DNA from: Octopus vulgaris
Taxonomy: Eukaryota
DNA: 64,000 nt
NCBI GenBank assembly: GCA_951406725.2
Contig: OX597842.1
Span: forward strand, 30,628,001-30,692,000
Direction of reading: 5' to 3'
Below are positions 33,708 to 34,800 of this stretch, piece by piece. Position 1 is the first letter of the stretch; each line of letters opens with the position of its first letter. Under the pieces are notes generated by a model. That model was not told the origin of the DNA. It did not search any database and was given only the letters and a program-made list of their open reading frames with translations. The position numbers and the translations under genes were made by a program.

Positions 33708-33960
33708 TTGCAAAGCCTTGGCAGGCATCTCAACTAGCAGGACTTGCTACCCTGGACTGATGATGAGCAAAAACTCAGAAACAGGCATGTCTCTAGGTGC
33801 TAGCCCTGGCTGGTGGGGGTGCTTGCCTCCCCTTTGCAAATATAAGGACACAGGAAATGTGTCAAGGCCGACAGGAAGCGTCGAAGCTTCCTAGGGCTAA
33901 ATAGCAGTGGTGTGATTCCCTTTACGGGACTGTCACGTTAAGTTGACAGTATAAAACCAC
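33708..33960 (+). mobile_element. Short hammerhead-bearing element in (TA)n (Penelope-like/retrozyme-like)
   Basis: Hammerhead plus a structured 3' module homologous to 34652-34800; TA arrays on both sides. Confidence 0.75.
33751..33797 (+). ncRNA. Type I hammerhead ribozyme, canonical core
   Basis: CCTGGA-CTGATGA-TGAG caaaaa CTCA-GAAA-CA ggca TG-TC-TCTAGG; all three stems pair; predicted cleavage after GUC at 33791. Confidence 0.9.
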
Positions 33961-34400
33961 TCTATATATATATATATATAAATAAATATATATAAATATA
34001 TAAATATATATATATAAATATATATATATATATATATATATATATATATATATATATATATATATATATATATATATATATATATATATATATATATATA
34101 TATATATATATATATATATATATATATATATATATATATATATATATATATATATATATATATATATATATATATATATATATATATATATATTATATAT
34201 ATATATATATATATATATATATATATATATATATATATAGTATGTATATATATATATATATATATATATATATATATATATATATATATATATATATATA
34301 TATATATATATATATATATATATATATATATATATATATATATATATATATATATATATATATATATATATATATATATATATATATATATATATATATA

Positions 34401-34800
34401 ATGGTTGTATACTGTCAATCTAACAAGAACGTGACAGTAGGGCACCACCATTATATAGCCCTAGGAGGCATCGAACGCCTCCTGACAGCTTCGACACATT
34501 TTATCCTGTGTCCTTATATACACATACGAAGGGGAGACAAACACCCCCAACTGCCGGAACTGCATCTAGGGACACCGTGTTTCAGGATCATTGTCCTTCA
34601 TCGGCCTAGAGTAGCAGACAACAGTCAGCTGGCGATGTCTGTCTCGACTTCGGTGTTTGTCTCCCCTTCGTATGTGTATATAAGGACACAGGATAAAATG
34701 TGTCGAAGCTGTCAGGAGGCGTTCGATGCCTCCTAGGGCTATATAACGGTGGTGTACCCCCTACTGTCACGTTCTTGTTAGATTGACAGTATACAACCAT
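34401..34800 (-). mobile_element. Hammerhead-bearing element with ~145-bp inverted arms (34401-34545 / 34652-34800) in (TA)n
   Basis: Arms are near-perfect reverse complements; the loop contains a minus-strand hammerhead. Confidence 0.85.
34565..34610 (-). ncRNA. Type I hammerhead ribozyme with U4C core variant
   Basis: Minus strand: TCTAGG-CCGATGA-AGGA caatga TCCT-GAAA-CA cgg TG-TC-CCTAGA. Confidence 0.8.

Follow-up and report, generated by a model that had tools for sequence, protein, structure and literature searches.

The structured RNA module located between positions 33708 and 34800 of the window (the whole 64,000-nt stretch of Octopus vulgaris contig OX597842.1 that was analysed) is half of a 351–364-nt head-to-tail monomer carrying a type I hammerhead. 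Taken together, the evidence favours, with a probability that we place at roughly 0.75, an explanation in which these monomers are retrozymes with a conserved predicted fold, likely inserted by the reverse transcriptase (RT)/GIY-YIG protein of a Penelope-like element (PLE) and probably docking via their 3′ helices. The region itself is a pile-up in a (TA)n tract, comprising a family A copy, 219 TA units, and a two-armed family B insertion, with the following features (the short site is the first of two insertion ends).

33662–33964 (+): family A retrozyme copy with the tail end of the preceding unit, a partly deleted spacer hairpin, the hammerhead rod, and the 3′ module; stops at the short site; 89–92% identical to the family A majority sequence
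33751–33797 (+): type I hammerhead with core CTGATGA at 33757, predicted cut after 33791, and near-palindromic stem III (sequence and descriptor scan)
33847–33863 (+): H1 hairpin GACACA/TGTGTC, the helix with the highest sequence conservation across lineages
33866–33898 (+): H2, with a 4-bp lower stem, an internal loop, and upper stem AGGAAGC/GCTTCCT; 4 of 10 pairs double-changed, with G-U intermediates
33904–33912 (+): 5′ strand of H4, whose pairing strand lies in the tail, absent from the window copies; 7 of 9 pairs double-changed
33929–33950 (+): H3 hairpin ACTGTCA/TGACAGT, with core GCCA/TGGC in lineages D, E/F, and G (family folds, majority sequences)
33963–34400 (no strand assigned): (TA)n tract, 219 copies of period 2, the common target of the A copy and the B insertion
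34401–34652 (−): minus arm of an inverted insertion with two arms, a family B retrozyme; stops at the short site; 97% identical to the family B majority sequence
within 34401–34652 (−): family B hammerhead core CCGATGA at 34604, predicted cut after 34571 (sequence and descriptor scan)
34652–34800 (+): family B plus arm, 5′-truncated and inverted relative to the minus arm, ending at the short site; 100% identical to the family B majority sequence over 154 nt
34957–34983 (+): 27-nt remnant of the family B short end in the next (TA)n tract (match to the family B end), possibly a product of slippage or of assembly

The first-pass annotation had described two elements sharing one layout, and the motifs it named (both hammerhead cores, stems I and II, three hairpins, ATA.AACCA, and (TA)n) are all present where it placed them. 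Between the two copies, hammerhead stems I and II do differ in sequence while keeping their pairing. The bounds given for the two elements, 33708–33960 and 34401–34610, enclose real features, but the A copy starts near 33662 and the B arm extends to 34652 on the minus strand. The string GGGGGTG..CTCCCCTT, listed as a separate motif, instead forms the 3′ strand of the long rod by which hammerhead stem I is extended, and TATAAG, listed as a conserved part of the layout, is not retained in lineages D and E/F. Nor is AACCA the end of the unit: it is one of the two insertion ends, and in other copies a tail of ~55 nt and a spacer follow it and, as the genomic flanks reveal, lead back to the hammerhead. 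The unit is therefore a closed tandem monomer rather than the 3′ end of a longer element.

Several other repeats lie nearby in this 2.8-Gb, microsatellite-rich host genome. A satellite array (22755–33140; 32.8 copies of a 317-bp unit, 99% matches, strong strand skew) stops ~520 nt before the family A copy, and other high-copy interspersed repeats, SINE-like by eye and present as copies and partial tandems, surround the (TA)n pile-up (33155–33560, 35009–35300, and 16130–17187). Hammerhead-like motifs of different repeat types occur at 1315–1360 (+), 42370–42510 (+), 59105–59150 (+), and ~50117 (−). The hammerhead family at 42376 (978 candidates) ends in (TA)n ~115 nt past its predicted cut; no ORF link and no module were found in the 20 loci viewed.

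Collection of genomic copies yielded at least seven families (A–G) in four lineages (A/C/B, D, E/F, and G) with 46–61% identity between lineages; B is nested within C, and families C–G were found by following diverged neighbours in the flanks. Monomer periods are 364 nt in B, ~354 nt in A, and 360 nt in D, and tandems range from dimers to a six-unit array on contig C1. Searches returned 2758 candidates for A (the best 40 at 89–100%) and 1770 for B at first look, followed by 2155 for C, 2887 for D, 1524 for E, 1704 for F, and 2957 for G; such counts (about 1,500–3,000 per family) are not copy numbers, and related families may have candidates in common. With an exact pattern for the lineage D tail end, 2977 matches were obtained, while the reversed control gave 8; the pattern exceeds the A–C sequence by one base and counts almost lineage D alone. 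The loci studied were the best 20–30 matches per query, apart from 30 first-listed pattern matches, rather than a random sample; because they are best-scoring matches, ages and completeness are biased upward. The families are a sizeable, and probably recent, part of the (TA)n-associated repeats of this genome.

No conserved reading frame was found: the longest ATG frame in family dimers spans 18–102 aa and is not shared between families. A conserved short ORF starting at the hammerhead ATG was also considered and rejected. A first monomer alignment, contaminated by inversion junctions, was left out of all counts. Three individual loci merit mention. The six-unit array (L173–L178; G000:C1 8133757–8135583) belongs to a D subfamily ~85% identical to the main D family and is a possible source locus for multimer transcripts. 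A D-related copy at L057:1233-1483 has kept the rod and 3′ module, with a different sequence in place of the hammerhead region. At L002:683-1414 (+), a family A insertion is immediately preceded by a 244-aa stop-free frame, which may be a host exon, the insertion then lying in the next intron.

Judged by their sequences, these elements are very probably non-LTR retrozymes, a known class defined by non-coding type I hammerhead tandems that are expressed as circles, and for which PLEs have been named as candidate mobilisers (PMC7229834). Each octopus unit carries one type I hammerhead, is a non-coding tandem monomer whose 351–364 nt lie within the ~170–400 nt of the class, and occurs in high, dispersed copy number with signs of retrotransposition. 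The earlier statement that the motif is not a described one thus stands for the fold, within Rfam and the literature searched, but not for the element class. In Rfam, nothing reached the gathering score in the window, and the 14 weak matches (E ≤ 10) in 33600–34900 are mostly driven by (TA)n, with no hammerhead family among them. Other assignments fit poorly. A plant-type LTR retrozyme would have a type III hammerhead, two LTRs, and a 4-bp target duplication, whereas the octopus units have a type I hammerhead, no LTRs, and 8–12-nt repeats. A tRNA-derived SINE was rejected because the unit is tandem and circularly permuted, and a B-box-like loop occurs in family B only (alignment judged by eye); TATA-box and Pol III B-box readings were likewise rejected, both being absent from lineages D and E/F. 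Some tandem arrays do exist, as would be expected of an ordinary satellite amplified by unequal crossing-over, or one might think of a host-functional structured RNA family. However, copies spread over nearly all large contigs and are 5′-truncated at scattered points; their 3′ ends are fixed, and inversions, direct repeats, and successive subfamilies occur among them. Contradicted also by the end statistics given below, a satellite or host RNA is extremely improbable.

When folded alone, each family adopts the same architecture: a spacer hairpin, the long rod extending stem I, H1, two-part H2, H4, and a tail hairpin. H4 is a long-range helix that encloses H3 and the first insertion end, its strands lying before and after the short site. 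The 3′ parts of the two window copies fold better than dinucleotide shuffles (z = −4.2 and −4.3; 0 of 200 shuffles as good for each). Whole-monomer z-scores range from −3.5 to −12.4, and those of the 3′ 178 nt from −2.9 to −6.4 in A–C, E, and F; in D they are −1.2 to −2.6, weakly better than shuffles. By eye, an unpaired CCC/CTCC run in the 3′ strand of the rod is complementary to GGG/GGAG in the H2 internal loop in several lineages, a possible alternative pairing.

Covariation had been proposed from the two window copies, in which, however, the stems of hairpins 1 and 3 are identical and the module shows a single compensatory change; covariation does appear with distant families. Counts were made on a sequence-only alignment of 26 real copies, with a reference structure from one family C row; its cells count sequences, not events, and independent covarying events are few (four deep lineages). 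Across H1, H2, and H4, 93.5% of cells are paired, versus 33–47% in slid-partner controls, and 12 of the 25 pairs are double-changed, a figure equalled in 1 of 500 shuffles. Among the module helices, covariation is strongest in H4, where lineages G and C differ on both sides at 6 of the 8 pairs kept. H1 is paired in 98.1% of cells, with one pair double-changed and four changed on one side; its sequence conservation suggests a protein contact. H3 is out of register in this alignment, so for this helix counts come from the family majority sequences alone; there, a U-A pair of A/C is replaced by C-G in D, E/F, and G. Two measures did not exceed shuffles: "further pair types" (480 of 500) and double-changed pairs in the hammerhead/spacer set (72 of 500).

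Placing the structure of one lineage on another kept more pairs than relocated substitutions did (p ≤ 0.031 in 18 of 20 comparisons), and a stricter test with double changes alone gave p < 0.05 in 11 of 20. Lineage G, discovered after the helices had been fixed, retains 38 of 45 pairs and shows 10 double changes; several of its misses resemble slips of alignment register, since the helices concerned do form when G is folded by itself. RNAalifold, applied to the sequence-only alignment, recovers the spacer hairpin, stem I, H1, and H2, and misses the rod, H3, and H4. The separate folds, double-changed pairs, and cross-lineage tests thus support, once the distant families are added, the first-pass suggestion of selection on an RNA structure. 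That the stems act instead as single-stranded DNA, in cDNA or in donor DNA seen by the endonuclease, has some attraction given that the Penelope tail is reported to be necessary for endonuclease recognition of DNA (PMC11167929). Yet G-U intermediates occur on the hammerhead strand in H1, H2, and H4, for example at the H2 pair already noticed in the first pass (A-U, G-U, G-C), a lower H2 pair (C-G, U-G, U-A), and the outer H4 pair (G-C, G-U, A-U). Read on the cDNA strand, such pairs would become A-C mismatches, and it is on the module's own strand that the hammerhead, too, is under selection. We consider a DNA structure highly improbable.

Of 10 family or subfamily sequences, 9 have the hammerhead core, stems, and cut triplet; the exception, D5, represented by one genomic copy, is altered in the core. 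Across lineages, each of the six stem I pairs is double-changed, and position 7 varies freely. Lineage D has a U3-A8 core instead of C3-G8, a covariation known from PLE hammerheads (PMC4209133), and families B and C carry C at position 4. Each family has its own stem III palindrome or near-palindrome; palindromic stem III has been linked to dimer cleavage in tandem transcripts (PMC4209133). From these features, retrozyme transcripts are predicted to self-cleave. In vitro, 1 of 9 Xenopus retrozyme dimers cleaved (bioRxiv 10.64898/2026.07.22.740005), so activity should not be assumed for the octopus families.

The second line of evidence comes from the insertions themselves. Outer 3′ ends fall at two exact positions, the short site and a tail end, in 40 of 47 cases in B (22 and 18) and 34 of 47 in D (11 and 23); two end clusters are also seen in A, C, E, and F, and the sites lie 46–59 nt apart. 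Inverted two-armed insertions account for 88 cases among 202 loci of the seven families. After exclusion of the 26 with an end at neither site, 57 of the 62 classifiable cases pair one short with one tail end (p = 1.5e-12 versus independent choice), and family B alone does so in 15 of 16, though the B query excluded the tail. The short-short B insertion of the window belongs to the remaining five. (TA)n directly follows 38 of 47 B ends and 32 of 47 D ends, with a lower share in older families; the AT fraction of flanks is 0.77–0.94. Direct repeats of 8–12 nt flank 14 of the 24 two-armed insertions outside (TA)n, versus 2.7% of mismatched flank pairs. These repeats would fit a staggered cut in which each 3′ end primes one arm. 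At the inverted junction, the arms overlap by 1–7 nt in 26 of 33 B and D cases, a count made with no null model.

The arms also bear on the nature of the template. They cross the hammerhead cut site in 39 of 47 B and 36 of 50 D cases, six of them at least twice, while 5′ ends lie at the cut in 1 of 47 B and 0 of 50 D cases. A cut linear monomer was rejected as template for want of a 5′-end pile-up at the cut site; with arms reading through the cut and no clustering of 5′ ends at it, the template is either a circle or a multimer left uncut. Segregating variants are common to pieces of one locus at 0.40–0.48 and to different loci at 0.12–0.13. This three- to fourfold difference agrees, as expected, with one template or one source per locus, though sharing is far below 1.

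With tails at one end, partial tandems with an inverted 5′-truncated copy, and (TA)n or AT-rich targets, the insertions carry the signature of PLEs, in which partial tandems with a tail at one end and an inverted 5′ copy have been described (PMC8557442). This footprint makes mobilisation by a PLE protein very likely. What the helices do is a separate matter. Their best reading, which we regard as reasonably probable, is a platform for RT docking and start-site choice; the role in RT recognition or priming raised in the first pass is accordingly plausible and agrees with the position of the two fixed ends. The same class and the same mobilisation could also be combined with helices selected for another RNA step (transcription, circle ligation, stability, or escape from silencing) and start sites set by local sequence. 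Conservation of the fold extends, after all, over the entire monomer, even to the spacer hairpin and rod, which lie at a distance from the ends; published retrozyme circles are strongly self-paired (PMC7229834), and A/T-rich sequence next to both ends could provide microhomology to (TA)n. What makes this alternative unlikely is that the strands of H4, the helix that covaries most, flank the short site, and that both ends occupy homologous structural positions despite sequence differing between lineages.

The units have no ORF and are thus not autonomous PLEs; RT and GIY-YIG frames occur elsewhere in the genome, unlinked to them. The first-pass annotation had anticipated an autonomous partner sharing the 3′ end, but neither blastn nor nhmmer found the module in the ends of the 70 PLE (GIY-YIG) loci fetched, and a profile of nine family sequences matched only retrozyme copies in these loci. 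Copies might alternatively be truncated pseudo-LTR (pLTR) ends belonging to an autonomous PLE whose own 3′ terminus is the module: most copies are truncated, 150 of the 6136 GIY-YIG candidates in the genome were scored (other PLE clades lie outside this sample), and retrozymes have been reported to resemble PLE pLTRs in Xenopus (bioRxiv 10.64898/2026.07.22.740005). However, long arms loop back into the monomer (up to 2.4 units in B, 2.6 in D, and 6 overall) rather than into an ORF or UTR, the 5′ neighbours of single B and D arms are unrelated to one another, and the module terminus is in none of the PLE loci fetched. Such truncated ends are accordingly very unlikely as an explanation of the copies, though an ancestral pLTR origin is possible. 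Twenty of 106 5′ neighbours of single arms match sequence in PLE loci, with coordinates mostly in flanks outside the mapped PLE bodies. Apparent links to PLEs at L136/L079 and L258 were rejected as independent insertions near a PLE.

For retrozymes inserted by a PLE enzyme in trans, the best partner candidate, at about even odds, is N1, a young family of Neptune/Nematis type. It encodes a 781-aa frame with RT and GIY-YIG matches, intact in 16 copies (mean identity 99.0%) among 25 loci examined, and among the 150 scored candidates no other family was seen to have full-length frames intact. Its linker, C-x4-C-x2-C, is of a type described for Neptune and Nematis (PMC8557442). N1 also targets (TA)n and has two ends ~38 nt apart, with one of each in all three two-armed loci seen, and its terminal hammerhead has the U3-A8 core of lineage D. 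The N1 tail is ~38 nt, versus 55–59 nt in the young families B and D. A profile search detected no sequence common to the N1 ends and the retrozyme module, and no chimeric insertion with N1 was found (the one suspected, at L258, was rejected: the old copy is ~570 nt away); neither mark of an N1 derivative is thus seen in the octopus families. In the tails of both N1 (L251:1040-1077) and the retrozymes, a short hairpin whose stem is CTC/GAG or close to it lies 12–21 nt before the far end; it is too short to be counted as a link. Upstream, N1 further has a second, separate frame of 359 aa that lacks any Pfam match over cut-off (L121:106-1182; the 781-aa frame is at 1445-3787) and a 3′ UTR of 1.1–1.3 kb (L121 and L251) with tandem GATTGG/TGACGT-rich repeats, promoter-like in look.

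A plausible cycle can be outlined. Tandem loci would be transcribed, and palindromic stem III would allow neighbouring hammerheads to cut as a dimer, as is known of hammerheads, releasing monomers that may circularise. The PLE protein would bind the series formed by H1, H2, H4 (with H3), and the tail hairpin, and cut (TA)n or other AT-rich DNA on both strands, leaving the direct repeats found at many insertions. Both DNA ends would then prime cDNA on a circle or uncut multimer, one at the short site within the H4-closed loop and the other 46–59 nt downstream, with arms passing the cut site and exceeding one unit. Head-to-head joining of the two arms would yield the inverted insertion with a tail on one side only. 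A tentative extension, which may well fail, is that the fold is a portable platform defined by structure, through which a small circular RNA captures in trans the RT dimer of an autonomous PLE with which it has no sequence in common; both subunits would sit at the two start sites of one circle and both ends of the staggered break would be primed at once. If true, this would be the first defined RNA recognition element for this telomerase-related class of RTs, and direct footprint evidence for the movement of animal retrozymes. The mobiliser of the latter has so far been argued from shared hammerheads, co-occurrence, and pLTR similarity; footprints at dozens of loci are more direct. Given the 360-nt template and its covarying fold, two start sites mapped to the base, and a young candidate enzyme in the same genome, PLE RT recognition becomes testable with a published in vitro assay.

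In a literature search of incomplete coverage, neither these families nor retrozyme tails were found described; entries for the families may exist in Dfam or Repbase under different names, and retrozyme ends or folds may appear in supplements of published work. Among known systems, EN+ PLEs (PMC8557442; Poseidon PAc, PMC11167929) offer a close parallel in their insertions: the octopus families share their partial tandems, inverted 5′-truncated copy, one-end tail, and (TA)n/AT-rich targets, as well as two internal start sites downstream of the hammerhead and templates reading through the cut. Indeed, for the anole Poseidon element in vitro, the tail is the stretch between two internal RT start sites, and uncut RNA is the main template (PMC11167929). 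Unlike EN+ PLEs, the octopus units have no ORF, a tail of 46–59 nt rather than 30–40 bp, and a hammerhead of full canonical size in a long rod rather than a minimal one. Chlamys elements such as MRC1 (PMC8557442) provide a precedent for non-autonomous PLE-type elements with head-to-tail multicopy insertions. The Chlamys elements have the 3′ sequence of their autonomous partners and mostly lack canonical hammerheads, whereas the octopus families have hammerheads and no partner sequence was found.

A recent preprint proposed that retrozymes derive from PLEs as non-autonomous elements, on the basis of co-occurrence and pLTR similarity in Xenopus and other vertebrates (bioRxiv 10.64898/2026.07.22.740005). 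The present analysis agrees on the mobilising class, although the octopus evidence is an insertion footprint, with no pLTR similarity found; the searched text of the preprint does not mention tails, covariation, secondary structure, or molluscs. The octopus families resemble the metazoan retrozymes of PMC7229834 (in mussel, repeats of ~350–390 bp) in size, in their non-coding tandems, in one type I hammerhead per unit, and in thousands of copies. They also have in common a GC content below 50%, long direct repeats at insertions, strong self-pairing, and PLEs in the same genome. Expression, cleavage, and circles have been demonstrated for those retrozymes, while in the octopus families cleavage is predicted and a circle is one possible template. 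The main text of PMC7229834 does not contain the words "tail" or "inverted"; the octopus families, for their part, show fixed dual ends and a covarying multi-helix module.
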